Of a stretch of DNA of 56,995 nt, positions 13,360 through 30,102 are shown piece after piece. The stretch comes from an uncultured Acidimicrobiia bacterium (GTDB lineage Bacteria; Actinomycetota; Acidimicrobiia; Spongiisociales; JAOTWH01). Numbering within the stretch: the first letter of the stretch is position 1; each line of letters opens with the position of its first letter. A program made the translations under genes and the position numbers. The notes under the pieces were generated by a model. It was given only the letters and a program-made list of their open reading frames with translations, searched no databases and was not told where the DNA came from. The stretch spans positions 1 through 56,995 of the forward strand of contig CAYFYE010000005.1 in the NCBI GenBank assembly GCA_964347285.1, read 5' to 3'.

Positions 13360-13643
13360 GGCAAATCCTTTCCGGGAGGATCAAACTCGGCACTGGGTCC
13401 ACCGGGGTCCGCAACGCCGTGTTCCCTCAAGAACGCACGAAGGCGCATCATGAGTTCCGGCGGCGGAGGCTCGATGGCCTTGCGTCTGACCAACCTCTTG
13501 AACTCGGCCTCGAAATCGAACTTCGAGCAGCAGGGTGGGCACTTGCGGAGGTGCCGCTGCACCTGCCAATAGCGCCACCGCGACATCTCGTCGTCGAGAT
13601 ACAGGTACACCTGTTCCGTCGCTTTGGCGCACGCTCGCTTCAT
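13356..13643 (-). CDS. rsrA: Zinc-binding anti-sigma factor (RsrA/RshA type)
   Basis: [17 protein letters not shown] (HxxxCxxC ZAS motif); ATGA overlap with the sigma gene. Confidence 0.88.
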
Positions 13644-14209
13644 GTCGAAGGTCCGGCCATTCCTCGTTCCCTTGCAAAATCCCACAACCGCTTCTGAAGG
13701 CCCTTTCTTCCCCGATGCAAGCGCGACATGACGGTGCCGATCGGTATGTCGAGCATCTCGGCAATCTCCTTGTAGGAGAACCCCTCGACGTCGGCCAGAA
13801 GCACCGGGAGCCGGAAGTGATCGGGCAACGCTTCCAAGGCGTCCCGTATGTCGGAGTCAACGATCTGGGCCAGCACCTCGTTCTCGGCGCTGGGAGCCGC
13901 CCCACCCCCGCCCGGTTCACCCATCCGCTTGTAGAGGTAGAAGTCCTCGAGCTCACCCAGCTCCACTTCGCTGGGTCGGCGCTGCTGCTTGCGGTAGCGG
14001 TTGATATACGTGTTGGTGAGGATGCGATACAGCCACGCCTTGAGGTTCGTTCCCGCCTCGAAGGTGTCGTAGGAGCGATAAGCCTTGAGGAACGTTTCCT
14101 GGAGCACGTCCTCCGCGTCGGCCGGGTTGCGGGTCATCCGCAACGCCGCCGAGTACAGCTGGGGGGCGAACGGGAGCGCATCCCGCTCGAAGTCGGCTTG
14201 GTCCGCCAT
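13640..14209 (-). CDS. sigR: ECF sigma factor of the SigR/SigH thiol-stress family
   Basis: [57 protein letters not shown]; followed by a ZAS anti-sigma. Confidence 0.9.
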
Positions 14210-14354
14210 TTGCTCCCACCTTACGGGAGCGATCCATGGTACCGGGGCCCGGGATTCGGGGGCATCATTGCCACCGGCCACGCAGCGTCACTGGGCAGGG
14301 CCGGCACCGGCCACGCTCAGGTAGCGCCCGGTTCGTGCCGATGCCAAGTGCCTG

Positions 14355-16856
14355 ATGCGTTGGGATCGCCGCGAACCCGCCGACGCGCTCACCGGCGACG
14401 CGCTCGGCACCGCCGTCCAGCAGGGTCGGGAGGCAGACTGGGCCGGCGACCTCGCTCACACCTGGCATTTGGCCCGTCTGGTCGGGGCCCTGTCACTGTC
14501 CGCCGGGTCGATCGGCCTTGGCGTGGTCTGGGGGTGGACGGAGGGCATCGCCGCTGGCCTGGCGATCTTGGCCGTTGTCCCGGATGCCGCATGGCGCCTC
14601 AAGCGTCCCGGGGCGGCCCTCCATTCTCTGCTCATCGATCTGGCCGCACTCGGCATCGCCGCCATGATTGCCCAGCCACCTGCGGTCGTGGTGGGCCTGC
14701 CGTTTGCCTACGCAGCTACCACGGCGTTGTTGTTCGAAACGCGGCACACCGCCGTACGACTGATCGGGTACGCCGCCCTGTGGACCGCGGCGGCCGCCGT
14801 CCTGCCGGCCCTCCAGGACGGCCCGGCGTGGCGCGCCGCCCAGATACTCACGCTCGCCATCCCCAGCTACATCGCCTTCGCCGGATTCCTGCTGGCGCTG
14901 CTCCAGGCCAACGCCCGGACCCTGAATCGACTAGAGAAAGCAAGCCGGGGAGCGCGCGCCGCTGCCAGGGCGAAGAGCGACTTCCTGCGCAATATGAGCC
15001 ACGAGGTGCGGACGCCGATGAACGGAATTCTCGGCATGGCCGAACTGATGCTCGACTCCGACTTGTCGGAAGAGCACAGGGACTATGCCCAGGTGATCCA
15101 TTCGTCGGGACGATCTCTGCTGGCCCTCATCAACGACCTCCTCGACCTGTCGTGGATAGAGGCCGGGAAGATCGAGATCGAACGCGCCCCCTTCAAGGTG
15201 AGGGACACACTCGCCGACATCTTCGAACACCACCGCCCGAAGGCTGACGCCAAGGGCCTGCGCCTCGATCTCTACGTGGCCTCAGCGACGCCCGAGGTGC
15301 TGGTCGGGGACCCGGGTCGGTTTCGGCAGATCGTCACCACCCTCGTCTCCAATGCCGTCAAGTTCACCCACGAGGGCTACGTCTGGGTGAGGGTGGGAAT
15401 CGACTCGGTCGATGCCGGGCGGGTGGTCGTGCACACCGAGGTGCAGGACACCGGCATCGGGATCGCTCCTCACGCGCAAGACAACATCTTTGGAGCGTTC
15501 AGCCAGGCGGATGGTTCGCTGACTCGAGAGCACGGGGGATCGGGAGCCGGGCTGGCCATCGCCTCGCGACTGGCCGGCCTCATGGGGGGCGCGATCTGGG
15601 TCGACTCCGTACCGGGTCGAGGAAGCACGTTCCATTTCACCGGTGAGTTTGGAACCGAGGTGCGGCCCGCCCCGGCTCGGGTAGAGGCCCGACCGCTCGA
15701 GTCTCTTTCGGCCGTGGTGGTGGCGGACACCGGAACATCTCTCGACAAGCTCGACGCCGTCTTGAGCGACCTCGGTATTCAGTCGCTCAAAGTCCCGACT
15801 CTCGGGGATGCGTTGACCGCTCTGTCGCGAGCCAGGAACGAGAACGAGCCTTTCGCGCTCGCCATCGTGGACGTGAGAGAAGGCCTGGGTGCGGCCCAGA
15901 GACTGAGCGAAACAGGTCATCTCGCCGGAACGAAGCTGGTCTTGCTGACGCCGCAGGGCCAACGGGGGGATGCGGCCCGGGCCCGGGAGTTGAACCTGGC
16001 CGCCTATCTGACCAAACCCATCGACCGCAGCAGCCTGGCCGAAGCCATTCGGCTGGTCGCCGCCAAGCCGGCCGGCGCCGATGGGGAACTGGTGACCAAG
16101 CATTCTGTTCGGGAGCTCCGGCAGATCAAGAGAGTGCTCGTTGCCGAGGACAGCCCGACCAACCGCCTCATCGTCCAAAAGCTCCTCGAGCGCCACGGCT
16201 ACGAAGTCGACTCTGCCGAAGACGGGTTCGACGCCGTGGAGGCATGGAGCCGAGGCCGCTACGACATCGTCCTCATGGACATCCAGATGCCCCGCATGGA
16301 CGGGCTCGAGGCGACTCAGGAGATCAGGCGCCGGGAACAGGGCAGGGGCGAGCACATCCCGATCGTGGCGCTGACGGCCCATGCCCTGCGTGGAGATCGG
16401 GAACGGTGTATCGGGGCCGGCATGGACGAATACCTGACAAAGCCCCTCCGGATTCAGGAGCTCCTGGCGATCCTGGGATCGGCAGGGGAGGTCCACGAAG
16501 GACCGAGTACCGAATCGCCGCCGGTCTTCAACAGCGAGACCGCCCTCGAGCTGTTTGGCAACGACCGCGAGCTCCTCGCCGGAATTCTGGAGGCCTTCCT
16601 CAAGGACTGCCCGGGTCAGCTGGCAGAGATCGCCCAGGGCGTCGACGATCGCAACGCCAAGGCAGTCCAGCGACACGCTCACAAGCTCAAGGGCGAGCTC
16701 GGAAACCTGGGGGCCGATGCCGCCTACCTCGCCGCCTCGGAGCTGGATCGGGTCGCCCGACTGGGCCGGTGGGACCAGATCGAAGAGGCATGGTCGGTGC
16801 TCGAAAGGGAGATGAGGCGATTGGAGCCGACACTCCAGGACGTGGCCGCCAGCTGA
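14355..16856 (+). CDS. Membrane hybrid sensor histidine kinase (TM region-HisKA-HATPase-REC-REC-HPt)
   Basis: MSHEVRTPMNG, NAVKFT, DTGIGI, GSGAGL, REC LVAEDS..LMDIQMP..YLTKP, HPt HAHKLKG. Confidence 0.93.
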   Translation: MRWDRREPADALTGDALGTAVQQGREADWAGDLAHTWHLARLVGALSLSAGSIGLGVVWGWTEGIAAGLAILAVVPDAAWRLKRPGAALHSLLIDLAALGIAAMIAQPPAVVVGLPFAYAATTALLFETRHTAVRLIGYAALWTAAAAVLPALQDGPAWRAAQILTLAIPSYIAFAGFLLALLQANARTLNRLEKASRGARAAARAKSDFLRNMSHEVRTPMNGILGMAELMLDSDLSEEHRDYAQVIHSSGRSLLALINDLLDLSWIEAGKIEIERAPFKVRDTLADIFEHHRPKADAKGLRLDLYVASATPEVLVGDPGRFRQIVTTLVSNAVKFTHEGYVWVRVGIDSVDAGRVVVHTEVQDTGIGIAPHAQDNIFGAFSQADGSLTREHGGSGAGLAIASRLAGLMGGAIWVDSVPGRGSTFHFTGEFGTEVRPAPARVEARPLESLSAVVVADTGTSLDKLDAVLSDLGIQSLKVPTLGDALTALSRARNENEPFALAIVDVREGLGAAQRLSETGHLAGTKLVLLTPQGQRGDAARARELNLAAYLTKPIDRSSLAEAIRLVAAKPAGADGELVTKHSVRELRQIKRVLVAEDSPTNRLIVQKLLERHGYEVDSAEDGFDAVEAWSRGRYDIVLMDIQMPRMDGLEATQEIRRREQGRGEHIPIVALTAHALRGDRERCIGAGMDEYLTKPLRIQELLAILGSAGEVHEGPSTESPPVFNSETALELFGNDRELLAGILEAFLKDCPGQLAEIAQGVDDRNAKAVQRHAHKLKGELGNLGADAAYLAASELDRVARLGRWDQIEEAWSVLEREMRRLEPTLQDVAAS

Positions 16857-16917
16857 CCGGCCGCGCCGGACGTTGCTCCGGCGACTTCTTCGGCGGGCGG
16901 TACCATCCGGGGCGTCG

Positions 16918-16993
16918 GCCGGGGTAGCTCAGACGGCAGAGCAGCTCACTCGTAATGAGCAGGTCAGGGGTTCGAGTCCCCTCCCCGGCTCCA
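16918..16993 (+). tRNA. tRNA-Thr (anticodon CGT)
   Basis: GCCGGGG/CCCCGGC acceptor stem, D arm GCTC/GAGC, anticodon arm GCTCA-CTCGTAA-TGAGC, T arm AGGGG-TTCGAGT-CCCCT, encoded CCA; 76 nt. Confidence 0.97.
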
Positions 16994-17071
16994 GGTGTTG
17001 CCCGATGATGCCGGCCCTCGGATCGTGCATCGGCGCCGGCTGGAGCAGGGGTCGTGGCTGCATTGCCTCGA

Positions 17072-19294
17072 CTAGCCGGGCAACAGCGACCGGAGTGCAC
17101 GAGCTCCGAGCCGTTGTTCGGGATCTGCTCGGCCGTCCTCTCCAAAATGGACGCCCTCTCCCTCGAGTATCTCCGCTGGATCGGTCCCCTCGTTTGACGG
17201 GCCGGAGACCGCTCGCCCGAATCGATCCAGGACTCGATGTGGGTTGGGACAACCATCGTGATTGCGGAGGTGGGCACCGACTGGGCTCGGGCGAGAATCG
17301 ATCACGGTGGCCAGATCGCCGTACGTGGTCCAGCGGCCCTCGGGGATCCTTGCCAGGATTCCGTGAAGGTCGCTCCAATCCCTTCGCTCGTTGCCGCCCT
17401 TCACCGTGCGTTGCTGCCGCCTCGACCCATCTCCGCCGTCGCGACGGGCTTTGGATCCGAGCACTCGAACAACCGTTGTGACCGGCTCACCTTGTTTCTC
17501 CAGACCACCGCCGTTGCCCCGACCAAGGCCGGCAGTTGCCGGCGGCTCGGTGTGGACCTCCCTCCCAACGGCCGCCTCCACGACATGGCCGTCCTCGACC
17601 CGGATGACCGTGTCGCACAGTTCGAGTGTGCTGAGGCGATGGGCGATCAAGAACGTGGTTCGGCCGGCGCTCAAGTCCCGTAGCGCCTCGATGATCGTGG
17701 CCTCGGTCCCCACGTCCACCGAGCTGGTCGGCTCATCCAGCACCAGCAGCGGTGCATCCTTCAGGAACGCCCGAGCGAGGGCGATGCGCTGGCGCTCTCC
17801 GCCGGAAAGCAGCACGCCACGGTCACCTACCGGTGTTTCATAGCCGCGCGGCAGGCTGGTGATGAAGTTGTGGATCCCGGCGGCACTGGCCGCGGCGACG
17901 ACCTCTTCGTCACGTGCCTCGGGGCGGGCATAGGCGATGTTCTCGGCGATGCTCGCCGAGAACAGGATGGGGTCCTGGAGCACGATTGCGTACTGGTGGC
18001 GCAGGTCGGCCAGCCGATAATCTCTGAGATCGACGCCGTCGAGGAGGATCGCGCCGGCGGTGGGGTCGTAGAAGCGCATCAGCAGGCTCACGAGGGTCGT
18101 CTTGCCTGCACCGGTCGCGCCGCTGATGCCTACGGTCGCCCCCGGCTCTACCTCGAGGTTCACGCGGTGGAGCACGATGTTGCCCCCGTGATAGGAGAAG
18201 TCGACATTGCGGAAGACGACTGCCCCCTGGGACCGCTTCAACGCTCTGGCATTCGGTCGTTCGGCGACGTCGGGGGCCTCATCGAAGAGTAGGAAGGCCC
18301 GCTCGGCGCCCGCCAGGGCATTCTGCAGGCCGGCCGCCTTGCGGCTCATCGTCTTGAGCGGGGAGTACAGCTGGGCCAGGTAGCCCAGGATGAGTAGTAG
18401 TTCGCCGAGCGTGATCACACCGGACTCGACGTGCCGGACTCCGATGTAAAGAACGGCGGACGTTCCCCCGGCCATGATGAGGGTGACCACCAGGCCGAAG
18501 GCCCCTTCGGCCAGCAGCAACCGGACCCGCCCCCGCAGCCCGGCCAGCGAGCGATCCTCGAAGCGTCCCTGCTCCCTGTCTTCCTGACCGAAGGCCTTGA
18601 CCACACGCAGGGCCGAGAGGACCTCCTGGACGACCGAGAAGGCAGCGCTGTCGAGGTCCTTCACCTCTCGGGAACGGCGCCGGATGCGTGGCCGCCACAG
18701 CGCCAGCGAAGTGAACAATGCCGGGGCGACCGCCATTGCGACCAGGGAAAGCTGCCAGTCGATACGAGCCGTCACGAAAATCATCGCAGCAACCATGACC
18801 CCGGCGGTGAAGAACGGAATCACGCCGTCGATGACGACGCGCTGGATCGAGGGTGCGTCGTATTGCAGCCTGAACAACAGATCCGCCACACCCTTCTGGT
18901 CTGCATAGGAGAAAGACAGCCTTTGCAGATGGCGGAAGAGCCGGGAGCGAAAGTCCAAGACGAGCTTCTCGCCGGTCCAGGTGCTGAGCACAGGGGCGGC
19001 GTATTCCTGCAACTGGGTCAGCACTGCCACCACCAGGAGGAGCGTCACAGCCACCAAGAGCAGGACCGTGTCGGAGGCGCCGTCGGGGACAAGACTGTCG
19101 AGGACTCCCGGCAACGGGTGGGGGCCCAGAACACTGTCGACGGCGATCGCCAACGGGACCGGCGCCAGCAGAGCCAACGGGGTCGAAAGCAGCCCAATCA
19201 GGAAGATCCCGGCGATGGGCAGCCGGTACGGCCTCGCCAGGTCGAGCAGACGTCTGAAGAGGCCCAGGTCGCTGTATGGAGAAACGGACGACAT
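17072..19294 (-). CDS. ABC exporter (TMD+NBD, MsbA/NdvA-like) with C-terminal alkyltransferase-like (MGMT/ATL) domain
   Basis: ATG at 19294 (MSSVSPYSDL); multi-TM region, GATGAGKTT, LSGGERQR, LDEPTS, AHRL. The frame continues through a linker into IPEGRWTTYGDLA...PVG...NPHRVL. Confidence 0.88.
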   Translation of the reverse strand: MSSVSPYSDLGLFRRLLDLARPYRLPIAGIFLIGLLSTPLALLAPVPLAIAVDSVLGPHPLPGVLDSLVPDGASDTVLLLVAVTLLLVVAVLTQLQEYAAPVLSTWTGEKLVLDFRSRLFRHLQRLSFSYADQKGVADLLFRLQYDAPSIQRVVIDGVIPFFTAGVMVAAMIFVTARIDWQLSLVAMAVAPALFTSLALWRPRIRRRSREVKDLDSAAFSVVQEVLSALRVVKAFGQEDREQGRFEDRSLAGLRGRVRLLLAEGAFGLVVTLIMAGGTSAVLYIGVRHVESGVITLGELLLILGYLAQLYSPLKTMSRKAAGLQNALAGAERAFLLFDEAPDVAERPNARALKRSQGAVVFRNVDFSYHGGNIVLHRVNLEVEPGATVGISGATGAGKTTLVSLLMRFYDPTAGAILLDGVDLRDYRLADLRHQYAIVLQDPILFSASIAENIAYARPEARDEEVVAAASAAGIHNFITSLPRGYETPVGDRGVLLSGGERQRIALARAFLKDAPLLVLDEPTSSVDVGTEATIIEALRDLSAGRTTFLIAHRLSTLELCDTVIRVEDGHVVEAAVGREVHTEPPATAGLGRGNGGGLEKQGEPVTTVVRVLGSKARRDGGDGSRRQQRTVKGGNERRDWSDLHGILARIPEGRWTTYGDLATVIDSRPSPVGAHLRNHDGCPNPHRVLDRFGRAVSGPSNEGTDPAEILEGEGVHFGEDGRADPEQRLGARALRSLLPG

Positions 19295-19302
19295 CGATGC
19301 CC

Positions 19303-21837
19303 TCACTCTGTCTGCTCGGTGGGCTCTACGACAGCGGCCACTCCTTCGGCTACAGCCTGACAGATAGCGGCCGTTGCCACAGCGCAGTCGTGGAGCGCCC
19401 GCCACGCCAGTACCGCGCTCGACCCCCCGAGGAGAGCGACCACTACCCACGCCCGGCTCGAGGCAGCGCCCACAGCAAGGACCGCCGTCAGCAGGGTCAC
19501 TGCCATCCACAACCACGGCCATCGGGGCCAGGAACGTATCCGTACGAGCTGCTTGCCGGATCCATGCTCCTCGACGGCCATGCGCAACCGGCAAGACCCA
19601 AACCTCCCGCCCCTCACTTCGAGGTCGAAACGGGCAAACGGTCCTCCGCGCAACGCTGTGACTCCCAACGTCGTCAGCGATGCTTCGATGCCGTAGAGCC
19701 ATTCGTCGTGGCCCCGGCCATGCTCCGTCCAGTACGCCCCTCGTTTCGGCCGGGGCAGCTTCCACCCATTCGTGCCCGTACCGCGCTCGGACATCAGGCC
19801 CGATGACAGCCGTCCGCCGAGCCGTGCCAGCGGCTGGAGTATGTGAAGGATCGCCACGATCAGGCGAAGGCGGGCCCGCCCGAGTCGAGACCGCGGCGGC
19901 CCGGTGAAGCGTGCTCGCTGGGCGCCGCTTATGGCCTGCACCGCCGCCGCCCCCGCGGCCAACGCCAGCAGCGGAGTGACGATCAGCAAGGGTGCCCAGA
20001 GCAGGCCCAGCAACGAGAGTCCGGCAAGGGTCAAGATCAAGAGGAAGAACTGGGGCATCCGAGGAAGGGACCGGATGAAACCCGACCCCGGCTCGTAGAT
20101 AGCCTGGTATTGCTCCGATCTCGGGACGGCGCCGTGAACGCGCCCGGTCGGGCGCAGGATCGGCGTCGACATCATGCCGTACACGGGCCCGCCCGGCCCG
20201 CCCCGACTCGGGACGCTGTACTTCCCGAGCCACTTCGCCTCGAGCAAGGCCTCGGCCGAGCCGTATCCGAATTGCTGTCGCCAGTACGAGCGTATCGTCG
20301 GCCGAGGGTGGTGCCACACCAAGGCGGCCGGGTTGAAGCCGAGCGTCCGACCGCGCTCGCGTATCCGCCGGCAAGCGTCGACGTCGTCGCCGGCAGAACG
20401 GAAGTGCTCGTCGAAGCCACCGATCTCCTCGAGAATGGATCTGCGGAAGGCCATGTTGCAGCCGGCGAGATGTTCCGCCTCTCCATCGGACAGGAGGACG
20501 GGTACAGGGTTGCCCGGCGAGTTGGCGACGCACTGCGACATCACCCGGCCGTCCGCCGGAGCAATACTCGGGCCGCCCACGCCGGCGTGTGGGGTGCTGC
20601 CGAACGTGTGGGCAATGTACGCCAGCCAGTGGGGGTCGGGGTAGGCATCGTCGTCGATGTAGGCGATGATTTCGCCGGTCGCCGCCTGGAGGCCGGCGTT
20701 GCGCGCTCGCCCGAGGCCGCCGTGCTGGGTTCTGATCAGGTTGACGCCGTCGAATTGTCGGACGATCACCGCCGTGTCGTCCGTCGAGCCGTCGTCGACG
20801 ACGATCGTCTCGTAGTCCGGATAGTCGAGTCCGGCGATCCCCTCGAGGCACTCCCTGATGCGGGAGCCGCCGTTGTAGCTGCACACGACTATCGAGATCC
20901 GCGGCCAGGTGCGTCTGCTGGCGAAGGGCGCCTTCGCAAAGAGCGGGTGCAGGGCGACCAAAGCCGGTTTCTCGGTGCGGTCAGGGCGGGTGAGGCCGAA
21001 CCGGCCGTCGTGAGACTGGTCGGTGACCATGCCGTTGTCGTCGGTCCAGGTGTGGGCAAACGCTCCGGCGCAGCCCGACTCGAAGATGGTGCCGATGTGT
21101 CGAGCCAGGACATGTGCTTGGGAGTCTTCACCGCGGCTTTTGGCATCGACGCCGACCGCGCCGATGAGCAGAGGGCTGTTGCCTGCCAGGGTTTGGAGCC
21201 GGGCCAGGTGAACCGAGAGGCTCGCAGGCGGCTCCGGGAGCACGCTGAAGCACAGGAGATCGAGAAAGTCGAGGACGAGGTCTTCGGCCGACGGGTGGTT
21301 GGCGTACGTGACGAGGCCGTCCGGATCTTCGGATTTGGCCGCGTCGTACAGGCGGGCCAGCAAACGCTCCGTCCGTCGGCGACCGTGCCAGCGGACGACC
21401 TGTGCCGGGATTTCGTTGGCGACCGAGTAGCAGAGCAGGGCGGGGTGTCCAGCACAATGTCGAACCCCGCGGCGGATGACGGCCTCGATTCCCGATGATC
21501 GTCGTAAGTCGATGGACTCGCCGATGAGCTGATCCGTCGCCAGTCCCACCATGACGTACAAGCCGTGATCCGCGGCGGTGTCGAGGAGGCTCCGAGCTGG
21601 GACTCTGTGAGTCCGGACCGCGTTGACCCCACGGGCGGCCATGTGGGCGAAATCCCTCTCGACCACGTCTGGTGGAGGGAACTCGTACCCATTGGGGGAC
21701 CGGAACCCGCCGTAGGTGACTCCGCGCACGTAGAGCTTCTCGCCCCGCATCGCCAAGAACTTGCCGACGGCACGCGGGCGATCAAACGGGATCTTCCGAT
21801 CGCCCTCTCTGACCTCCCGGTCGGCACCGCTTCCCAT
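19303..21837 (-). CDS. GH-A-clan TIM-barrel/GT2 glycosyltransferase/TM fusion, paralog 2 (degenerate GH domain)
   Basis: KLYVRGVTYG, GVNAVR, ANEIP; GT2 SIVVCSYN, DDGS, YIDDD, GCNMAFR, GDDVD; C-terminal TMs. Confidence 0.88.
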   Translation of the reverse strand: MGSGADREVREGDRKIPFDRPRAVGKFLAMRGEKLYVRGVTYGGFRSPNGYEFPPPDVVERDFAHMAARGVNAVRTHRVPARSLLDTAADHGLYVMVGLATDQLIGESIDLRRSSGIEAVIRRGVRHCAGHPALLCYSVANEIPAQVVRWHGRRRTERLLARLYDAAKSEDPDGLVTYANHPSAEDLVLDFLDLLCFSVLPEPPASLSVHLARLQTLAGNSPLLIGAVGVDAKSRGEDSQAHVLARHIGTIFESGCAGAFAHTWTDDNGMVTDQSHDGRFGLTRPDRTEKPALVALHPLFAKAPFASRRTWPRISIVVCSYNGGSRIRECLEGIAGLDYPDYETIVVDDGSTDDTAVIVRQFDGVNLIRTQHGGLGRARNAGLQAATGEIIAYIDDDAYPDPHWLAYIAHTFGSTPHAGVGGPSIAPADGRVMSQCVANSPGNPVPVLLSDGEAEHLAGCNMAFRRSILEEIGGFDEHFRSAGDDVDACRRIRERGRTLGFNPAALVWHHPRPTIRSYWRQQFGYGSAEALLEAKWLGKYSVPSRGGPGGPVYGMMSTPILRPTGRVHGAVPRSEQYQAIYEPGSGFIRSLPRMPQFFLLILTLAGLSLLGLLWAPLLIVTPLLALAAGAAAVQAISGAQRARFTGPPRSRLGRARLRLIVAILHILQPLARLGGRLSSGLMSERGTGTNGWKLPRPKRGAYWTEHGRGHDEWLYGIEASLTTLGVTALRGGPFARFDLEVRGGRFGSCRLRMAVEEHGSGKQLVRIRSWPRWPWLWMAVTLLTAVLAVGAASSRAWVVVALLGGSSAVLAWRALHDCAVATAAICQAVAEGVAAVVEPTEQTE

Positions 21838-21975
21838 TGCCCGCCTGGCCTCGTCCCCGGTCCCTTGACACTCTACGCGTTCAGCTACGGCGACCTTACC
21901 GCATCAGCGGTGGTGCTACCCCAACCCCCCGAGGAGTCGGCCCCGGCGCCATGTCCCCGGGCCTACGGCGTTGAG

Positions 21976-23289
21976 TCAGTTGCCCGGGAATGCCGTCGGC
22001 GGCTGCCCATCGCAGCTCGACGCGTCGGGAAGCTGCCCGGCGCCGCCCATGGCCTCTTCGAGCAACCGGGGCAGCACCCGGTCCGAGTCGAAGAATTCCT
22101 CTGCAATCGACCTGGCGGCCTGGGAGTGCCGGGCGTAGTCGGAGTCGACTTCCCGCACGGCATCCACCGCCTCGTCCAGAGTTTGGAACGCCAAGATGCC
22201 CTCGCCCGCCGGCAGCACACCTGCGAAGCCGGTGTCCTGGACTACGACGGGCCGCCCGCTCGCCAGATAGCAGGCACTCCGCTCGCTGAACCAGCCGGGC
22301 CGACCCCGGACGTAGGCGTGCTTGGCAACAGTCCACTCGGCTCGCGAAGACTGGATGTACCAGCGATACCGGTCCGGATCACCGCATCTCTCAAAGGCGT
22401 CGACGACGTTCCAGCCGGCGTTGCCGAGCAGGTCTCGTGGAGTCCAGCGTTCGTTCTCTCGTGCCGATGCGCGGCGAGGGGTCGACTGGTCCTCGGTTTC
22501 CCAGTCTTGATGCCGGGTCGATCCCAGCGCCACCTCCATCGCCAGGGGATCGACCTTTTGCGGTAGCTCGAGAAAGCGCTTGAACTCCACGTCCTTCTGC
22601 CCGTAGGAGTCGCTGCCGTAACGTGCCGGTGCGTAGCTCGTCCAACTCATGACAGTGGTAAAGACCTCGCGAGCGCCCCCAGAGGGCGGCCACTCGGAGA
22701 GAACGATGGGCTGGCGGGTCGGCCGCCACCGGTGTCGGGTCCCCGGCATGGTTGCCCAGAGCCGCTCCCCGAAGCTGAAGTGCACGTCGTGAGCATCGGC
22801 GCGCCTGCGCACCGGGCCGTCTTCGGCGGTAGCGATCTTGGCCTGGGTAACTACCGGATCGGTGTCGATGTAGACCAGGCGCGGGATGGGTCGGTACTTC
22901 TCTGGATATTCGAGGGAGCCGGAAATATTGAGCAGCAGGTCGGCGGAGCGGATGACGGCCCGGCGGCGCTCGGCGGACAGACCGAACCACTCGGCTCCTG
23001 GTGGGTAACGGTAGGCCCAACGGTCGTCGAGGTCGAAGCGAGCCATCAACCTCGCCAGGTAATCCACGTTCTGTCCGCTGGCGGCTACCCGATTCTTTGC
23101 AGAAGTGCCGCTGTCCACGAGGTATGGCACTTCTCCCGAATCCTCGAAGTAGTACACGTCGTGTCCGAGCCGGACCAGCCCGAGCAAGAAATGGAGGTAG
23201 TGCCAGGCGAGCCCTCCCAGAGGTGGATGCTGACAGATCAGGCCGGTCACCACGATGCGCAGGGCCGGGGTCGGCTGGGACACCGCCAT
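21976..23289 (-). CDS. Putative GT-B glycosyltransferase
   Basis: GGLAWHY..LGHDVYYFED N-terminus; FSERSACYLASGRPVVVQDTG GT-B C-terminal signature. Confidence 0.78.
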   Translation of the reverse strand: MAVSQPTPALRIVVTGLICQHPPLGGLAWHYLHFLLGLVRLGHDVYYFEDSGEVPYLVDSGTSAKNRVAASGQNVDYLARLMARFDLDDRWAYRYPPGAEWFGLSAERRRAVIRSADLLLNISGSLEYPEKYRPIPRLVYIDTDPVVTQAKIATAEDGPVRRRADAHDVHFSFGERLWATMPGTRHRWRPTRQPIVLSEWPPSGGAREVFTTVMSWTSYAPARYGSDSYGQKDVEFKRFLELPQKVDPLAMEVALGSTRHQDWETEDQSTPRRASARENERWTPRDLLGNAGWNVVDAFERCGDPDRYRWYIQSSRAEWTVAKHAYVRGRPGWFSERSACYLASGRPVVVQDTGFAGVLPAGEGILAFQTLDEAVDAVREVDSDYARHSQAARSIAEEFFDSDRVLPRLLEEAMGGAGQLPDASSCDGQPPTAFPGN

Positions 23290-23296
23290 CACTTCC

Positions 23297-25807
23297 TCAT
23301 CGAGAAGGCTCGGTATCGTCGGCCCGCAATTGCCGGAACGTCCGCAGGTAGGAGGCGGTGGCAACGGCGCAACCGCCGAGAGCCATCAGGGCCAATACCA
23401 GCGCCGAGGACGCCAGCATGGCCGAGGCAGCCCAGGCTCCGTCGAGGCCGGCGGGGACGGCGAGCACCGCCAGCAGCGCTATCAGAAACAGGGAGCCCGC
23501 CCCGACCCTGGGCCAGGCGCGGAAACGAACTCTCTGACGGTCGCCTTGGCCCTCCACGGCCAGGCGGGCGCGCGCAGACCCGAGCCAACCGCCACGGATC
23601 TCGAGATCCCAAGGTTCATGGCGGCCGCCCCGGGCGGTGACGACTCCCTGGCGCCGCAGGGCCGCCTCCACGTGTTCGAGATGCTGCTCGGGTTCCGAGT
23701 GACGGTCGCACCAGAAATCGCCGATGTGCGCTCGGGGCAGGCTCATGTGACGTGGCCGCCGCCGGGGCGCCCGTCCGGCCTTCACCCGACCCCAGCCGCG
23801 AGCGACCGGCTGGATCAGGTGGAGCAGAGCGGTCAACGAAAGCAGACTCAGCCGGGCTACCGAAGAACGGGGCCGATTCGTAGAAAGGGCCCGAGAGGCG
23901 TCGACCAGCGCTCGGACAGCGAGGGCGCCGACGGCCAGGGCGAGCAGGGGCACGGCGAGCAGAGCCGGCGCCCACAGAATCCCCAATACGGAAAGCCCGG
24001 CGAGGACGCCGATCAGGAGATGGGATTCAGGCAGCAGCGACCATGACGACAACGCGCTCGGGGCCCGCTCGTAGATCGACTGGAACGGCGCCTGTCCCCA
24101 AACGCCGTGGTACACCTGCGGGCGCCCCCACGACCCGCCTCCCCGTCCGGCACCGTAGATCCGGCCCTGCCAGCGGGGGCGTCCGAGGGGACCGTGCCTG
24201 TTTGCCCACTTGCCGGCAAGCAAGCCTTCGGCGTACCCGTAGCCCACCTGCTGTTTCAGATAGGCCCGAACCGTGGTACGGCGATGGTGCCAGACCATCG
24301 CAGCCGGGGAAAACCCCAGGCTCCAACCTCGCTCGCGCAGACGCCAACAGACGTCGACATCGTCGCCGGCGGCGTTGAACCGAGGATCGAACCCCCCGAT
24401 GGCCTCGAGAGCCGACTTGCGGAACGCCATGTTGCAGCCCGGCAAGTGCTCTGCTTCCTCATCCGTGAGGAGCACGTGGCTGGGGCTTCCAGGAGCGTTG
24501 GCGACGCATTCGGCGACCAACCCGCCTCGAGGAGGCGGAACGTTTGGACCCCCGACCCCGACGTGGTCGCTCGTCGAAAACGTCGCGGCGAGATAGCTCA
24601 GCCAATGCGGGTCGGGGTAGGCGTCGTCGTCGAGGTAGGCGACGATCTCGCCGGTTGCTGCTGCTAGACCGGTGTTCCGGGCGCTGCTCAATCCTCGGTT
24701 CTCGGTGCTGATCACGCGGAAGCCGTATTCGGCGGCGATGGCCCCGGTTCCATCGCTCGACCCGTCGTCGACCACGATCACTTCGAAGTCCGGGTACTCC
24801 AGCTTCAGCAGGCCCTCGCAGCACTCCCGTATGGTGCGGCTCCCATTGAAGCTGCAAACGACGACCGAGATGCGGGGCCATGTTGAGGGCTCGGTGGGAA
24901 ATGGTCCTCTGTCGAAGGCACGGCGCACCGCGATCAGAGCGGGTTTGGGCCTGCGCTGCTCATCGGTCAGGCCGAATTTCCAGTCGTCTACGACGGTGTC
25001 GCCCCGGTACCACTCGTCGGTCCAAGAGAAGATGAAGAGGCCGGCGCAGCCTGCAGCGAAGGACGTGCGGACCTGCCAGTCGAGCACCTCGGCCTGTGCC
25101 GCCTCACCATTTCGCAGGGCGTCGAGCCCCACTTCGCTCATGATCACCGGCTTGTCGCCGGCAATGTTCTGGAGCCGGGCGAGGTAGGCCTCCAACGGCT
25201 CCTGCGCCTCCAGATATACGTTGTAGCAATGCAGATCGAGAAAGGGCAGCTGGAGGTACTCGGTCGTCGGATAGTTCACATAGGTGACGAGGCCACCCGG
25301 GTCTTCCTGCTTCACAGCGCGGCTCATGTGCTTCAAGAAGCGCTCCACGCGCCGCGGGCCGAGCCAGCGGACGATCGAAGCCGGGATCTCGTTGCCCAAG
25401 GCGTAGCAGAGCAGGGCCGGATGGCCGCGACAGCTGCGAACCTTGGCACGTACGGTTTCCTCGATGTCCGGAGCATCCTCGGCCTTGCGGTCGATCAGGT
25501 AGCCGACGTACTGCTCGACGGACAGACCGACCATGACCCGCAGGCCGTGCCGCTCCGCCGCATCGAGGAGGCCCGGCGGCGGCGTCGTATGGGGGATGCG
25601 AACCGCATTCATGCCGTTGGCGGCAATCCGAGCGAAGTCCTGCTCGACCATCTCGAGGTCGTGGTATTCGTTGCCGTCGGCGTCGGGTCGAAAAGCTCCG
25701 TAGGTCACGCCTCGCACGTAGAGCTTCTCGTTGCCGGCGAAGAGAAACTTGCCCCCGACTCGCGGCCTGGCGTCGAAGCGCACCCGGCGGTGCTCGGGCG
25801 CACTCAC
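23297..25807 (-). CDS. GH-A-clan TIM-barrel/GT2 glycosyltransferase/TM fusion, paralog 1
   Basis: KLYVRGVTYG, GMNAVR, GNEIP (acid/base), IMSEVG (nucleophile), FSWTDEW; GT2 DDGS, YLDDD, GDDVD; C-terminal TMs. Confidence 0.9.
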   Translation of the reverse strand: MSAPEHRRVRFDARPRVGGKFLFAGNEKLYVRGVTYGAFRPDADGNEYHDLEMVEQDFARIAANGMNAVRIPHTTPPPGLLDAAERHGLRVMVGLSVEQYVGYLIDRKAEDAPDIEETVRAKVRSCRGHPALLCYALGNEIPASIVRWLGPRRVERFLKHMSRAVKQEDPGGLVTYVNYPTTEYLQLPFLDLHCYNVYLEAQEPLEAYLARLQNIAGDKPVIMSEVGLDALRNGEAAQAEVLDWQVRTSFAAGCAGLFIFSWTDEWYRGDTVVDDWKFGLTDEQRRPKPALIAVRRAFDRGPFPTEPSTWPRISVVVCSFNGSRTIRECCEGLLKLEYPDFEVIVVDDGSSDGTGAIAAEYGFRVISTENRGLSSARNTGLAAATGEIVAYLDDDAYPDPHWLSYLAATFSTSDHVGVGGPNVPPPRGGLVAECVANAPGSPSHVLLTDEEAEHLPGCNMAFRKSALEAIGGFDPRFNAAGDDVDVCWRLRERGWSLGFSPAAMVWHHRRTTVRAYLKQQVGYGYAEGLLAGKWANRHGPLGRPRWQGRIYGAGRGGGSWGRPQVYHGVWGQAPFQSIYERAPSALSSWSLLPESHLLIGVLAGLSVLGILWAPALLAVPLLALAVGALAVRALVDASRALSTNRPRSSVARLSLLSLTALLHLIQPVARGWGRVKAGRAPRRRPRHMSLPRAHIGDFWCDRHSEPEQHLEHVEAALRRQGVVTARGGRHEPWDLEIRGGWLGSARARLAVEGQGDRQRVRFRAWPRVGAGSLFLIALLAVLAVPAGLDGAWAASAMLASSALVLALMALGGCAVATASYLRTFRQLRADDTEPSR

Positions 25808-26002
25808 TGTCGGCTGCCAAGGGTGCCCGAGCCGCCCCGGGCAAGAGGTGCCGAGGGAACAGCGAGGATGTAACGGCCGAGCCCGGGTGCCGAGGCAGGT
25901 TCCAACGTGACCTCCGTGCGTTCCGCTTCTCTCGCTGCGAAGAGCGGCGTCGCGGGCATACCGCCGGCCGAGACGACCCCCGACCTCGGTTTGCGCTCCC
26001 GC

Positions 26003-26038
26003 CCACCACTGGTGGTCTTATACCACAAGCAGTGGTGG
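26003..26038. promoter_or_regulatory. Bulged inverted repeat overlapping a minus-strand extended -10-like element upstream of the glycosyltransferase genes
   Basis: CCACCACTG/CAGTGGTGG plus GTGGT/ACCAC arms; the minus strand reads TGGTATAAG across the loop. Confidence 0.5.
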
Positions 26039-26108
26039 AGAGCACCGCAGCGCCTCACCCGTCCGGAAGCGATTTCCGCACCAGCACTCCAGACAGCGCT
26101 CGGTGCGC

Positions 26109-27119
26109 TCAAGCGAGGACGACCCTGCTCAACTTCTCAGCCTGGCCGACCAGCGCCGAGACCTTTCCCTCGGAGAAGCCCTTTTCTATGCCGCGGCTCA
26201 GCCAGTCCAGAATCCGATGGAAACGGAAGCAGTCCATCACCCGTGGCAGTTCCACCTCGTCGGGGACAGGAACGGCGTGGTGAATGGCCGCATTCCGGTA
26301 GGCCCGATAGATCCGCTCTCGCGCCGGCGATCGAACGCCGTCGGTGAAGAACGCCAGGTCATAGAGGGTCGCGCCCACGGCAGCCGACTCCCAATCGACG
26401 GCGCACACCCGCACCGGCTCGCACCGTGTGTCGAGCAGTACGTGCCAGGGGATGTAGCCGCCGTGCACGAGGCTGAGCGGTTGGCTGGTCATAACGTCGA
26501 CGACCCGACCGTACGATTCGAGGGCTCTCGCCAGACGCCCGGCACAGGCGGGCGCGAGTCGGGACACATTGCGCTGGGACTCGTCAGCCTTGGAATGGAA
26601 GAACGCCGCGTCGTGCCGGATCAGGAAGTCGGCTTCGGCCAGCAGACGCTCATGGCGTCGAAAGTATTCCTGAAGCCGGGCCAGCCACGCCGCCGCCGGC
26701 GGGCCGTGCCTCCCATCCGCCTCTTCCACAACGACGCCGCCGACCAGTTCCAGCAACAGCCAGTACGTGGCCCGAGACTCGTCCCAGATAGATCCGCAAT
26801 ACGCCGCGGTGCCCAGGTCCGACTGTGCCAGCAGATCTCGGTAGACGCGCATCTCGCGATCGCGTCTCTGCCCAAGATCGTCCTTGGTTTTGCGGGAGCG
26901 GCCGAAGTCCTTGAGGAAGAAGAAGAGGTCCTCGCCGCCGCCCAGGGTCACGGTCACGACCTCGCACTTGTAAGAGCCGACATACGGGAACCGCTTGCGA
27001 CGGATGCTCTCGATCACCGTTCGGCCGCCACGCTCAGCGGCGATGATGGGCTCCAGAAGTGTGCGCAACGAAGCTCCACCTCCACCTTTGGATCCGGTCG
27101 TTCTCGTGGTTCGAGTCAT
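26109..27119 (-). CDS. APH/choline-kinase-fold phosphotransferase, probable pseudokinase
   Basis: FFLK, WLLLELV, LVHGGYIPWH in place of HGDxxxxN, VDWE, YDLA. ATG at 27119. Confidence 0.8.
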   Translation of the reverse strand: MTRTTRTTGSKGGGGASLRTLLEPIIAAERGGRTVIESIRRKRFPYVGSYKCEVVTVTLGGGEDLFFFLKDFGRSRKTKDDLGQRRDREMRVYRDLLAQSDLGTAAYCGSIWDESRATYWLLLELVGGVVVEEADGRHGPPAAAWLARLQEYFRRHERLLAEADFLIRHDAAFFHSKADESQRNVSRLAPACAGRLARALESYGRVVDVMTSQPLSLVHGGYIPWHVLLDTRCEPVRVCAVDWESAAVGATLYDLAFFTDGVRSPARERIYRAYRNAAIHHAVPVPDEVELPRVMDCFRFHRILDWLSRGIEKGFSEGKVSALVGQAEKLSRVVLA

Positions 27120-27147
27120 CGGCCCTACATCCGCTTCGGCGAGCGCG

Positions 27148-28101
27148 CTACGACAGCCACGCTGCCCTCTCGACGAGCTGGTCCAGCCAGGAGCGGCACA
27201 GCGCGATCTCCCCGACCGAACCCTCCTTCCGCTCCAGACGCGGCATCGCCCAGTCGAGGTAGACGAGACACCGGAAGATCCTCCCAACGGTGGCCAGGCG
27301 CCGGAGCTGGAGCTGATCCATTTCCGCCCGACTTTCCTTGACGGTCGTCCAGTACACGTCGAGGTCGACACCAGAGATGTCTTCGGCCGGAACTCCCCAA
27401 CCCGCCTTCTCCCAGTCGATCGGCAGCAAGACGAGACCGGATGAGCCGCGGCGTACGTACACGTTGTGACCTATGAAGTCACCGTGTACGAGAGTATCCG
27501 GGACGCCTCGGCACACCTGCTCGAACTCGTCCCAGCTTGTCGCAAGTCCCTCGCAGTGTTCGAGGACCGCCTCGAGAACGACTGCGTCGTGGCCCGGCAC
27601 AGCGTCCTCGGCGAGCTGCTGGTGCAGCGCGGCGCCTGCCGATCGAAGAAGGTTTCGATAGTGCTGCGACCGCCGCGACGGAAGCCGGTCCGCGGCCGGG
27701 GGCCGGCCGAGCGAGCGGTGGAGAACGCCGAGCCACCGGCCGGCACCCGCTCGATGGTCGTCACGCCGGCGGCGATACGAGCCGACGGTCACGTCCTCGA
27801 GGAAGATCCAGCAGAATCCACGCTCGGGCTCCTCGGCCGCTCCGTAGTAACGGAGGAGCGGAAGCGGAACCTGCGGAAGGATCTCCTCGTAGACGACTCG
27901 TTCCACCGCGGCCGTCGCCTGGGGCGAGCGCTTGGCGATGACATCACCCTCTCGATCGCCGGCGCCGCGCAAGCGACACACCCCCGCTCCCCCACTGTCC
28001 GATTTGAGCACCTCGACACCCTTCGGCCCCACGGGTACTCCCCCGAGCCCGTGCCAGGCGCGGACGGCTGCGGCGGCCAGGGCGTCTTCCCCGCCGGTCA
28101 T
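27148..28101 (-). CDS. APH/choline-kinase-fold phosphotransferase
   Basis: VIAKR, WIFLEDV, LVHGDFIGHN, IDWE; ATGA overlap with the upstream kinase. Confidence 0.87.
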   Translation of the reverse strand: MTGGEDALAAAAVRAWHGLGGVPVGPKGVEVLKSDSGGAGVCRLRGAGDREGDVIAKRSPQATAAVERVVYEEILPQVPLPLLRYYGAAEEPERGFCWIFLEDVTVGSYRRRRDDHRAGAGRWLGVLHRSLGRPPAADRLPSRRSQHYRNLLRSAGAALHQQLAEDAVPGHDAVVLEAVLEHCEGLATSWDEFEQVCRGVPDTLVHGDFIGHNVYVRRGSSGLVLLPIDWEKAGWGVPAEDISGVDLDVYWTTVKESRAEMDQLQLRRLATVGRIFRCLVYLDWAMPRLERKEGSVGEIALCRSWLDQLVERAAWLS

Positions 28102-29216
28102 GATTGCGACCGCCGGAAGACGGGCGGAGGTGCTGCTGCGCCCGGCGCCGGCCCCCAGCTGGCACCGTCGATCGATCGCGCCAGCGCTGCCGAGTAGAGC
28201 CTGTACTTCTCCACGACGTCTTGCGACGGGTAGTCGAAGACGGGGAAGCTCAGGTCGATGACCTTCAGTGCCCAAAAGAGCTGGCCGAGATAGGCCAGTT
28301 GCCGGATCGATTCGAGCCGGAGAGCGGGCCAGTGTTCTCGCGTCACTTCCCAGTAAGCGAGGTAGTCGGGCTCTCGGACCGGAGGACCACCGAAAGGCAG
28401 TGCCAGCTGCCCCAGGTCCGTCGCCGCCAAGCCCCAGCCGGCCCCACCCCAGTCGAAGACGGCGACCTCCACTCCGTCGCCGGCTTCCCGGACGTGCACG
28501 TTTTTCGGCAGGCAATCGGTGTGGACGAGGGTCCTGGGAACATGCTCGCAGAATCCCTCCAAGTCCATCCAGCAAGACTCGAGGTACTCACACAGCAAGC
28601 TGATGTGATCGAGGACCTCCACCCCCTCGGGCGAAATCGAGGACCGAGCCTGCAGTCGGGGGAGGGTCTCCCTAATCGATTGCAGATGCCCACGGTAGAA
28701 ATCGGGGCCCCGCTCGGCGAAGGCGTTCCGCGAGGAGCTGCGCTCGCTGAACGCTTGCAGGGCGCCCAGCCAGCGCCCGACCAGACGACGGTGCTCCTCC
28801 GCTCCCGGCGAGTATTGCTCACCGCCGACGTCTTCGAGGAACAGCCAGGCAAAGGATGCACCTTCTTCTTCGACAAATCCGTAGTAGTCGGGCGAACTCG
28901 AGGGCAGCCGAGACAGGACCTGCTCGTACACGTCCCGCTCGACGACGGCCTTCTGCAGATGGGCTCGCTTGGCTATGACCCCCGCATTCCCCGGCCCGAT
29001 GCCGGCCAGTCGATAGACCGAGCTTCTCGATTTGTGCTTGAGCACCTCGATGTAGTCGGGCTCGACGGGCGCCGCCACGAGATGGCTCCACGCCTGGACG
29101 GCGGGGTGCTGGCGAAGATTCGTGGTGAGGATTGCGTCCACCCGCTTCATCCCGGCCTGCTTGGTCGCTCCACCGATCCTATCTTTGGACGCCGGCCTCC
29201 CGTGCCCGTCGCTCAC
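28098..29216 (-). CDS. APH/choline-kinase-fold phosphotransferase
   Basis: VIAKR, WLFLEDV, LVHTDCLPKN, FDWG, TDLG. The start may be the ATG near 29150. Confidence 0.87.
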   Translation of the reverse strand: MSDGHGRPASKDRIGGATKQAGMKRVDAILTTNLRQHPAVQAWSHLVAAPVEPDYIEVLKHKSRSSVYRLAGIGPGNAGVIAKRAHLQKAVVERDVYEQVLSRLPSSSPDYYGFVEEEGASFAWLFLEDVGGEQYSPGAEEHRRLVGRWLGALQAFSERSSSRNAFAERGPDFYRGHLQSIRETLPRLQARSSISPEGVEVLDHISLLCEYLESCWMDLEGFCEHVPRTLVHTDCLPKNVHVREAGDGVEVAVFDWGGAGWGLAATDLGQLALPFGGPPVREPDYLAYWEVTREHWPALRLESIRQLAYLGQLFWALKVIDLSFPVFDYPSQDVVEKYRLYSAALARSIDGASWGPAPGAAAPPPVFRRSQS

Positions 29217-29319
29217 CTATCCGGACCTGCACTCCATCGGGGAAGATCCGTTGCCGCGCCGGGTTCCGGAATCCGCTCTGGTCCTGCGTCTTCGACTCCA
29301 GAGCCGTGCTGAGGCGGCT

Positions 29320-30102
29320 TCAGCCCTCGGCGGGACGCGGCAGCGGGATGAGACGGTGGTCCTTGGTGAACAGCCGCCGTACCGCGCCGAATCCAACGAC
29401 CGCGGTAGTGGTGGCTACCGATCCCAGCACCAGATACATCACCGCCGCCTGGACCCGCACCGCCTCTACCGGGTCCACCCCGGCGAGGATCAAGCCCGTC
29501 ATCGCTCCGGGCAGGAACACGATGCCGACCGCCTTGGTGGTCTCGATCTGCGGGGTGAGCGCGGTGGAGACCGCACTCCGCAGATAGGGTCGGGCCGCGA
29601 TCATCCCCGGATGCCCCAGCGCCAGCCGGGCCTCGACCTCCATGCGCCGGTCGCGCAGCTCCTCGACGATGCGGCGGGCCACCAGAACCGTGGCGGTCAT
29701 CGAGTTGCCCACCATCATCCCTGCGATCGGGACCAGCGCCCTGGCCTCCAGCGGAAAGACCCCGAAGCCGAAGAGGATCCCGAGTGTCACCAGTGCTGCC
29801 GCTGCGAAGGCAGCAAGGGCTATGGGACGGATACCGGGGACCTCATCGGCCCGGCGACGCACCGTCTCGGCGGCGAACACGATCATCACCGCCACCCACA
29901 GCCAGGACCACACCAGGGGAGTTTCGGAGTCGATCACCAAGGCGAGGCCGGCCCCGATGATGAGCAGCTGTACCAGCGCACGCCCGGCAGCCCACAGCAT
30001 GCGGCCTTCCAGGCCGAGGCGCTGCCACAGCGAGAGCACCACAGCCACCCCGACCAGCGACAGAGAGACCGCCAGGCCGGCGAGGGTGACATCACCCGGC
30101 AT
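29320..30102 (-). CDS. fetB: ABC transporter permease, FetB/UPF0014 family
   Basis: RALVQL, IAGMMVGNSM, EARLALG, GIVFLPGAMTGLILAG..P..AV..Q. Confidence 0.85.
   Translation of the reverse strand: MPGDVTLAGLAVSLSLVGVAVVLSLWQRLGLEGRMLWAAGRALVQLLIIGAGLALVIDSETPLVWSWLWVAVMIVFAAETVRRRADEVPGIRPIALAAFAAAALVTLGILFGFGVFPLEARALVPIAGMMVGNSMTATVLVARRIVEELRDRRMEVEARLALGHPGMIAARPYLRSAVSTALTPQIETTKAVGIVFLPGAMTGLILAGVDPVEAVRVQAAVMYLVLGSVATTTAVVGFGAVRRLFTKDHRLIPLPRPAEG

Follow-up and report, generated by a model that had tools for sequence, protein, structure and literature searches.

An ABC exporter gene running in frame into an alkyltransferase-like domain beside a tRNA-Thr gene in an uncultured Acidimicrobiia bacterium, probably by evolutionary accident

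The DNA analysed here, called the window, is a stretch of 56,995 nucleotides (nt) from the genome of an uncultured Acidimicrobiia bacterium (assembly GCA_964347285.1, contig CAYFYE010000005.1). Positions 17072..19294 of its reverse strand form a single open reading frame (ORF) of 740 amino acids (aa), in which an ATP-binding cassette (ABC) exporter is followed by a Gly/Arg-rich linker and by a C-terminal domain that resembles the alkyltransferase-like (ATL) proteins. An earlier note, made from the letters alone, had described such an in-frame union of exporter and ATL-like domain; its coordinates for the ORF were correct, and the open frame, Pfam, profile searches and a structure model all agree with the description. 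As the note had stated, no stop codon follows the nucleotide-binding domain (NBD), the frame being continuous from the NBD through the ATL-like domain to the stop at 17072-17074. Translation would begin at the ATG at 19294, 6 nt past the TGA of an upstream family 2 glycosyltransferase (GT2) gene, and the fused gene and a tRNA-Thr gene face each other with their 3' ends, the tRNA gene lying 78 nt from the stop codon. The linker, put at about 55 aa in the note, measured 50-60 aa, depending on the end that is assigned to the exporter's own tail, and the ATL-like tail reaches the natural C-terminus of the family from which it appears to derive. As argued below, the fusion is probably an evolutionary accident, in which the exporter runs in frame into the remnant of a defence gene at the tRNA. 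The features are collected in Table 1.

Table 1. Features of the fused ORF and of its surroundings, in positions of the window
Feature	Positions	Strand	Basis
ABC exporter core, residues 1-580 (six-helix transmembrane domain, NBD and a few residues of its own C-terminal tail)	17555..19294	-	Pfam
Orphan Gly/Arg-rich linker, ~residues 581-630	17405..17554	-	Exporter-end comparison, profile and pairwise nulls
ATL-like, Cys-less MGMT-fold domain, residues 631-740	17075..17404	-	Pfam, profile, AlphaFold2, Foldseek
tRNA-Thr (anticodon CGT)	16918..16993	+	ARAGORN
~12.3-kb stretch at the 3' side of tRNA-Thr	16994..29319		Synteny against G007 and G002; Pfam on ORFs
GT2 gene	19303-21837		Pfam
GT1-like gene	21976-23364		Pfam
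GT2 gene	23297-25807		Pfam
Three APH-like (phosphotransferase family) kinase ORFs	26109-29216	-	Pfam

The exporter part is intact and, from its context, should act as an ordinary homodimeric pump for the product of the adjacent glycosyltransferases. Pfam placed ABC_membrane at residues 62-313 (E 7.9e-39, 134.4 bits against a cut-off of 28) and ABC_tran at residues 375-524 (E 2e-30, 106.6 bits against a cut-off of 25). The translation contains the strings GATGAGKT, VLQDP, LSGGERQR, LLVLDEPT and IAHRL, all intact, which we take to be Walker A, the Q-loop, the LSGGQ signature, Walker B and the H-loop, respectively. The gene is the last of a glycosyltransferase cluster and encodes a working-type half-transporter of the MsbA/HepA/glucan-exporter kind. 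It belongs to the ABC half-transporter class, with the transmembrane domain (TMD) ahead of the NBD, and to no named equivalog, the top NCBIfam models being MsbA, cyanophycin-associated ABC, HepA and glucan exporters, all under their equivalog cut-offs (412.9 against 602 for the MsbA equivalog TIGR02203). With the MsbA/HepA/NdvA-type half-transporters of glycan clusters the protein shares the TMD-NBD order and the NBD motifs, but it scores below each of the equivalog cut-offs and is the only one with a C-terminal domain among the relatives found. The exported substrate is most likely a glycolipid or polysaccharide, as predicted from the neighbouring glycosyltransferase genes. Contig C2 of the same genome carries a paralogue of the exporter with 59% identity; G028 and G017 have the best orthologues, at 55%. 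G028 has a related GT2-ABC gene pair, but it is of a different family, the gene context differs and no tRNA is nearby. In an alignment of exporter ends with six rows, one of them from the unpublished genome G011, the paralogue and the best orthologues stop 17-28 residues beyond the last NBD strand. Matches of the exporter itself in PADLOC (mad3, mad8 and AriA) were set aside as generic ABC-ATPase likeness.

Identification of the C-terminal domain started from a weak match. DNA_binding_1 (PF01035), the family for which the earlier note had proposed a HMMER check, was found at residues 646-715; it scored 20.4 bits when the whole protein was scanned and 24.0 bits (E 3.6e-5) when the tail was scanned by itself, both below the 27-bit gathering cut-off of Pfam. 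This single-sequence match is backed by family matches, by a profile and by structure prediction. The tail region matches 42 other proteins of 407-1295 aa with E values of 1.7e-20 to 1.1e-8, most of which list PF01035 in their precomputed Pfam column, and an exhaustive HMMER search of 1.84 billion representatives with the tail gave 434 matches at E <= 1e-3, 130 of them at E <= 1e-10. A profile and an AlphaFold2 model were based on an alignment, A1, of the tail with 31 short relatives (32 members). When the A1 profile was compared with solved structures, Atl1 of S. pombe (3gva, E 2.1e-8) and the ATL of Vibrio parahaemolyticus (2kif, E 3.8e-8) led, and the active methyltransferases all ranked below these two. 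The AlphaFold2 model of the tail had a predicted local distance difference test (pLDDT) score of 91.8 and a predicted template modelling (TM) score of 0.83, and its top two Foldseek matches in the PDB were 2kif and 3gva, at a TM score of ~0.6.

The motif equivalent to PCHRV reads NPHRV in the tail, with Pro at the position of the catalytic Cys (Ala, Val or Pro in the relatives), so the tail cannot be an alkyltransferase; the domain had been called likely non-catalytic, and the absence of the Cys supports this. Having neither the Cys nor a PF01035 score at the gathering cut-off, it falls outside the MGMT/Ogt/Ada proteins, while its Cys-less MGMT C-terminal fold is, by profile and Foldseek, closer to the ATLs than to the active transferases. 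In Atl1, Trp replaces the Cys, and an Arg finger flips the damaged base. The window has Pro at the Cys/Trp position, and by our own reading of the alignments the Arg of Atl1 corresponds to Gln in the family consensus and to Ser in the window. On its sequence and model the tail is filed as ATL-like and not as ATL, having the predicted ATL fold and failing two of the hallmarks. It shares with Atl1 (3gva) and 2kif the fold, the helix-turn-helix TYGDLA...VG and the xHRV motif without a catalytic Cys. Where those two proteins have the Trp of PWHRV, however, the tail has Pro and its relatives have Ala or Val, and the tail family adds a C-x-x-C motif (H-x-x-C in the window) and an F-x-W insert, the latter lost in the window. 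Atl1 and 2kif are also free repair factors, whereas the domain in the window is an appendage on a membrane pump.

The combination of ABC exporter and ATL-like domain was found nowhere else in the proteins searched; it is new in form, probably without a new function. ABC domains are present in only one of the 43 tail-matching proteins of 407-1295 aa, namely the window's own. The exporter body gave no blastp match at E <= 1e-3 to any of 192 tail relatives, and a Pfam architecture scan of the first 75 of the 150 listed representatives found no ABC domain (0/75). The 740-aa protein was also compared with its own genome (G000) and the genomes of 40 relatives, with 150 listed matches and 292 further unlisted ones. 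Apart from the window's own row, one of the 150 listed matches, in G023, continues past residue 630. This match, which runs to residue 712 across an internal TGA, was considered as a second fusion and rejected, as it consists of two adjacent ABC genes with no ATL domain. A search for the fusion partners of the ATL-like domain, suggested in the earlier note, returned GmrSD, McrB-like, PDC-S11, RAMA and TIR proteins, and ABC in none. Literature searches aimed at a fusion of an ABC transporter with an alkyltransferase-like domain found none.

In the scan of 75 representatives, PF01035 was detected in 62 (E <= 1e-4), GmrSD_N and/or GmrSD_C in 21, RAMA in four and TIR_2 in one; McrB-like AAA proteins and NucS-like nuclease proteins were further carriers among the proteins matching the tail. 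The ATL-like domain is C-terminal in 99 of the 192 relatives, internal in 41, N-terminal in 17 and roughly alone in 35, in a crude classification where "alone" means fewer than 60 residues on either side and where gene fragments may account for many of the short proteins. The earlier note had placed such domains at the C-terminus of GmrSD restriction proteins, which agrees with the 21 representatives and with the occurrence of PF01035 in several GmrSD homologues, mainly from Streptomyces, that is reported in PMC4619093. PMC12065111 contains no mention of MGMT or ATL, and no literature pairing "alkyltransferase-like" with GmrSD by those words was found.

By sequence comparison, the nearest relatives of the tail are members of a ~450-aa family of predicted PDC-S11 type, and not GmrSD. 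These proteins are named "MGMT family protein" at NCBI, are up to 55% identical to the tail and carry a RDWSDLH signature directly ahead of the ATL-like domain; their N-terminal halves match the PADLOC candidate system PDC-S11 with E values of 1e-47 to 1e-128. A quick maximum-likelihood tree built from 175 domain sequences placed the tail of the window in a group of 39 rows, 31 of which are of PDC-S11 type and seven unclassified, with no GmrSD and no McrB row; the support of this group is not strong (87 in the Shimodaira-Hasegawa-like approximate likelihood ratio test, SH-aLRT), and no starred branch surrounds the window's row. The GmrSD (DUF262/DUF1524) type IV restriction enzymes resemble the window protein in having the same domain family at the C-terminus, but the tail lies outside their rows in the tree, and neither DUF262 (GmrSD_N) nor DUF1524 (GmrSD_C) was found in the fused ORF by Pfam or by tblastn with P0005, P0023 and P0026. 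The ~450-aa PDC-S11 form shares with the tail its natural C-terminus; it differs in its N-terminal PDC-S11/NucS-like nuclease half and its W-R-N-D...G-P-x-W-W middle domain, both of which are missing from the window in all frames. The ATL-like domain is rare in the order, occurring in two of 301 genomes, this one included; the copy in the other (G090) is an ORF that, judged by eye, is closely like the GmrSD protein P0005. Across the collected proteins (P0002-P0193), the Cys-less ATL-like domain with its C-x-x-C and F-x-W motifs recurs on GmrSD, McrB-like AAA, PDC-S11-type nuclease, RAMA and TIR proteins, and it appears to be a DNA-sensing module common to defence systems.

Of the donor protein, the window retains no more than the C-terminal ~105 residues. 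Searches by tblastn with nine donors gave homology only at 17081-17404, extending to 17476 for one McrB-like query, and revealed no donor homology in the other frames of the window. Within the retained part, a gap of 4 codons deletes the near-invariant F-x-W motif; among 174 relatives, 98% have its F and 93% its W. The terminal branch leading to the window's tail in the quick tree has a length of 0.68, against a median of 0.3. The GC content of third codon positions (GC3) falls from 0.83 in the exporter body to 0.66 in the linker and 0.64 in the tail, the drop coming just after residue ~580; the neighbouring genes range from 0.69 to 0.85.

The linker itself behaved as an orphan. To judge from the alignment of exporter ends, the first ~20-25 residues probably still belong to the exporter, as an unconserved tail. 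A profile of the region ahead of the domain in donors (75 residues, 24 donors) scored 20.7 bits on the linker, a value reached by 112 of 300 shuffled sequences; the best Smith-Waterman score against 136 such regions was 35, reached by 113 of 200 shuffles; blastp of the linker gave nothing better than E 0.27, and the linker region has no repeat elsewhere in the genome. An extension of the linker into the C-terminal helix of GmrSD, seen by BLASTP, was rejected as chance and dropped, since no profile, pairwise, other-frame or blastp signal was obtained for the linker.

A second remnant of the PDC-S11-type/ATL kind, 48% identical, is located on contig C75 of the same genome (4022-4744 on the forward strand, ~1126-1848 of locus L016). 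It covers residues ~226-455 of the donors only, without a start codon for 165 codons; the middle and ATL-like domains are kept and F-x-W is intact, and the nuclease half is missing. This copy is plainly a 5'-truncated remnant.

The surroundings of the tRNA were compared with the tRNA-Thr as anchor, using its flanks in seven relatives, one of the loci coming from G011. The ~12.3 kb of the window between the tRNA-Thr and position 29320 are absent from this place in G007 and G002, which belong to the same family: in both, a homologue of 29320-30171 follows within ~13 nt of the tRNA-Thr. Other occupants of the same flank are a homologue of 35066-36253 in G005 and homologues of 37056-38415 in G008 and G012. 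The 3' flank of the tRNA-Thr is a variable region, and the ATL remnant lies at its tRNA-proximal edge. The tRNA-proximal edge is the usual place of integrating elements. Synteny anchored on the histidine kinase gene on the other side of the tRNA was uninformative because the orthologues of this gene share just 39-46% identity.

The uniqueness of the fusion, the truncated and damaged domain, the shift in composition, the second remnant and the variable tRNA flank favour an accident. Of the two interpretations offered in the earlier note, the same observations support an accidental fusion with a defence-gene remnant at the tRNA site, and no support was obtained for a transporter gated by modified DNA or nucleotides. 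A candidate phage-defence gene for a ~450-aa protein, built from a nuclease half of PDC-S11 type, a middle domain and, at the C-terminus, the Cys-less ATL-like domain for DNA binding, would once have adjoined the tRNA-Thr on its 3' side. Later, a deletion or a recombination event would have erased this gene except for its last ~105 codons, together with the stop codon of the exporter, so that translation would now pass ~30-50 unrelated codons and enter the remnant in frame. The tail is cytoplasmic, being C-terminal to the NBD, and the cell probably tolerates it without making use of it; the pump would be a normal exporter, in which the ATL-like domain has no gating role. Besides the substrate, it is the order of these events and the tail's loss of function that we infer here. 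Arithmetic on base composition suggests that accidental read-through is not unlikely: at 67% GC, ~28% of 55-codon stretches are free of stops, and one in three junctions is in frame.

Several points weigh against this account. The tail still conforms to the family in 27 of 32 strongly conserved columns, against a family median of 28, and 64 of 174 relatives score no better on these columns; the confident fold (pLDDT 91.8) and the exact natural C-terminus mean that a retained function is possible. The GC3 drop is suggestive and not extreme, because ~6% of the genome's 160-codon windows in long ORFs, a crude null set, reach a GC3 of <= 0.65. Around the site there is neither a direct repeat nor an integrase, nor any other sign of an integrated element, the 3' end of the tRNA has no second copy at up to 3 mismatches, and no local alignment to it was obtained at the right edge of the island. 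Insertion here and loss there are indistinguishable by synteny, the relatives compared being distant and of different genera. Finally, no other assembly seen bridges 17443-17452, so a mis-join is possible.

This last point was followed in Logan contigs of three runs from one study and in a public metagenome contig. The latter, of 16,026 nt, was found by a 32-nt junction pattern and is identical (100%) to 17452-20491, with no mismatch or gap; its end, at 17452, falls within the linker. In two runs, Logan contigs match 17508-17713 gap-free, and each half of the fused ORF was matched without indels in other assemblies. Positions 17444-17507 are uncovered in run X1 and 17453-17512 in run X2; such holes prove nothing, and in X2 they are frequent elsewhere too. 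The contig depths on the two sides are 6.57 and 7.5 in X1 and 3.0 and 3.06 in X2, which is a weak hint only. The public exporter-side contig and the tail-side Logan contig of X2 stop at the same base, 17452, and a GGATCC site comes directly after it, within 17452-17458.

The apparent fusion could be explained by a mis-join in the bin, whereby a 480-nt piece (16964-17443/17452) with the tRNA's 3' part and the ATL remnant was wrongly attached to the exporter contig; the exporter of the organism would then be normal, and the remnant may belong elsewhere. The genome is metagenome-assembled, a bin of 187 contigs that is 90% complete, the public contig stops exactly at 17452 in the linker, and the other edge of the piece is a tRNA common to many members of the community (depth 373 against ~7) and often located at contig ends in the assemblies of relatives. 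However, assemblers require overlapping reads, and no repeat of the region of at least 31 nt exists elsewhere in the genome; the similar depths in X1 and X2 hint weakly in the same direction. Moreover, the public contig keeps the exporter frame open for 34 codons beyond the normal exporter tail, and a collection of 5.8 billion proteins contained no near-identical tail on another N-terminus (85-272 and 407-1295 aa); among the proteins of 85-272 aa the best match was 51% identical. A mis-join seems unlikely. An error of another kind, a 1-nt mistake in base calling or assembly, would let the exporter end truly at a TGA at ~17487-17489 in the +2 frame ("...WSGETR*"), giving a protein of ~603 aa, a normal exporter length, and the coverage is low (~3-7x). 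Since 17452-17713 is reproduced without gaps by the Logan contigs and the public contig, the error would have to be shared by separate assemblies, which may nevertheless rest on the same reads, and we consider it highly improbable.

If the frame is real, the tail could still be used. In a functional new fusion, the ATL-like domain, tethered to the cytoplasmic side of the pump, would bind DNA, perhaps damaged or modified, or a nucleotide-like ligand and regulate the ATPase, or anchor DNA at the membrane. The open frame, the completeness of the domain up to its natural end, the 27 conserved positions, the confident AlphaFold2 model and the mobility of the same domain, as a module on GmrSD, McrB-like AAA, PDC-S11 nuclease, TIR and RAMA proteins, are consistent with this. 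On the other hand, the fusion is known from a single occurrence, the family's two most invariant aromatic residues are missing, the branch is long, the linker is an orphan and the codon usage is not ameliorated; a clearly dead second remnant occurs elsewhere in this genome, and where Atl1 has its DNA-flipping Arg, the family consensus has Gln and the window Ser. A function of this kind is rather doubtful. Still more doubtful is its specific form, in which a real fusion is in use and the ATL-like domain would serve the exporter as a sensor in the cytoplasm: on binding DNA that is foreign, damaged or modified, or a nucleotide-like signal, at the inner membrane face, it would turn the export of a surface glycan on or off. 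Alternatively, two products could be made, the second being a stand-alone ATL-like protein started at GTG 17404 or GTG 17464, both in frame, and overlapping the end of the exporter ORF. Stand-alone forms were counted in 35 of the 192 relatives, many of which may be incomplete genes on short contigs. A separate start at GTG 17404, named in the earlier note as an outcome that would speak against the fusion, has no Shine-Dalgarno-like support: neither GTG is preceded by a usable motif, the nearest GAGG being at -19. No promoter-like or terminator-like site was found in 16800-17700, and with no stop upstream the ribosomes would read through anyway, which leaves two products with very little likelihood. 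An exporter that has run by accident into a defence-gene remnant is the explanation we consider most likely.

The other genes around the tRNA were annotated with Pfam. Both GT2 genes of the cluster have an N-terminal GH2-like TIM barrel. The three consecutive APH-like ORFs overlap as listed mechanically, so their true starts are probably further downstream. On the other side of the tRNA-Thr, a gene for a hybrid histidine kinase (HisKA, HATPase_c, receiver and Hpt; 14355-16856, forward strand) stands between the tRNA and a sigma-factor gene (13640-14281). The sigma-factor gene adjoins the tRNA in all seven relatives (7/7), ~60-110 nt away, and the kinase gene therefore looks to have been gained here or lost in the relatives.

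As a mechanism of the transporter, the fusion is probably without importance. If it is real, it would be a clean and datable case of a dead defence-gene fragment at a tRNA hot spot joining a protein of housekeeping type, and would show raw material for new domain architectures; it would also be a warning for automatic annotation, which labels the protein simply as an ABC transporter. Should the sensor reading be true, a direct link would exist from the sensing of phage DNA to the remodelling of the cell surface. The more interesting lead is the little-studied Cys-less ATL-like module itself, which is spread across defence effectors and whose ligand is presumably a modified or damaged base.

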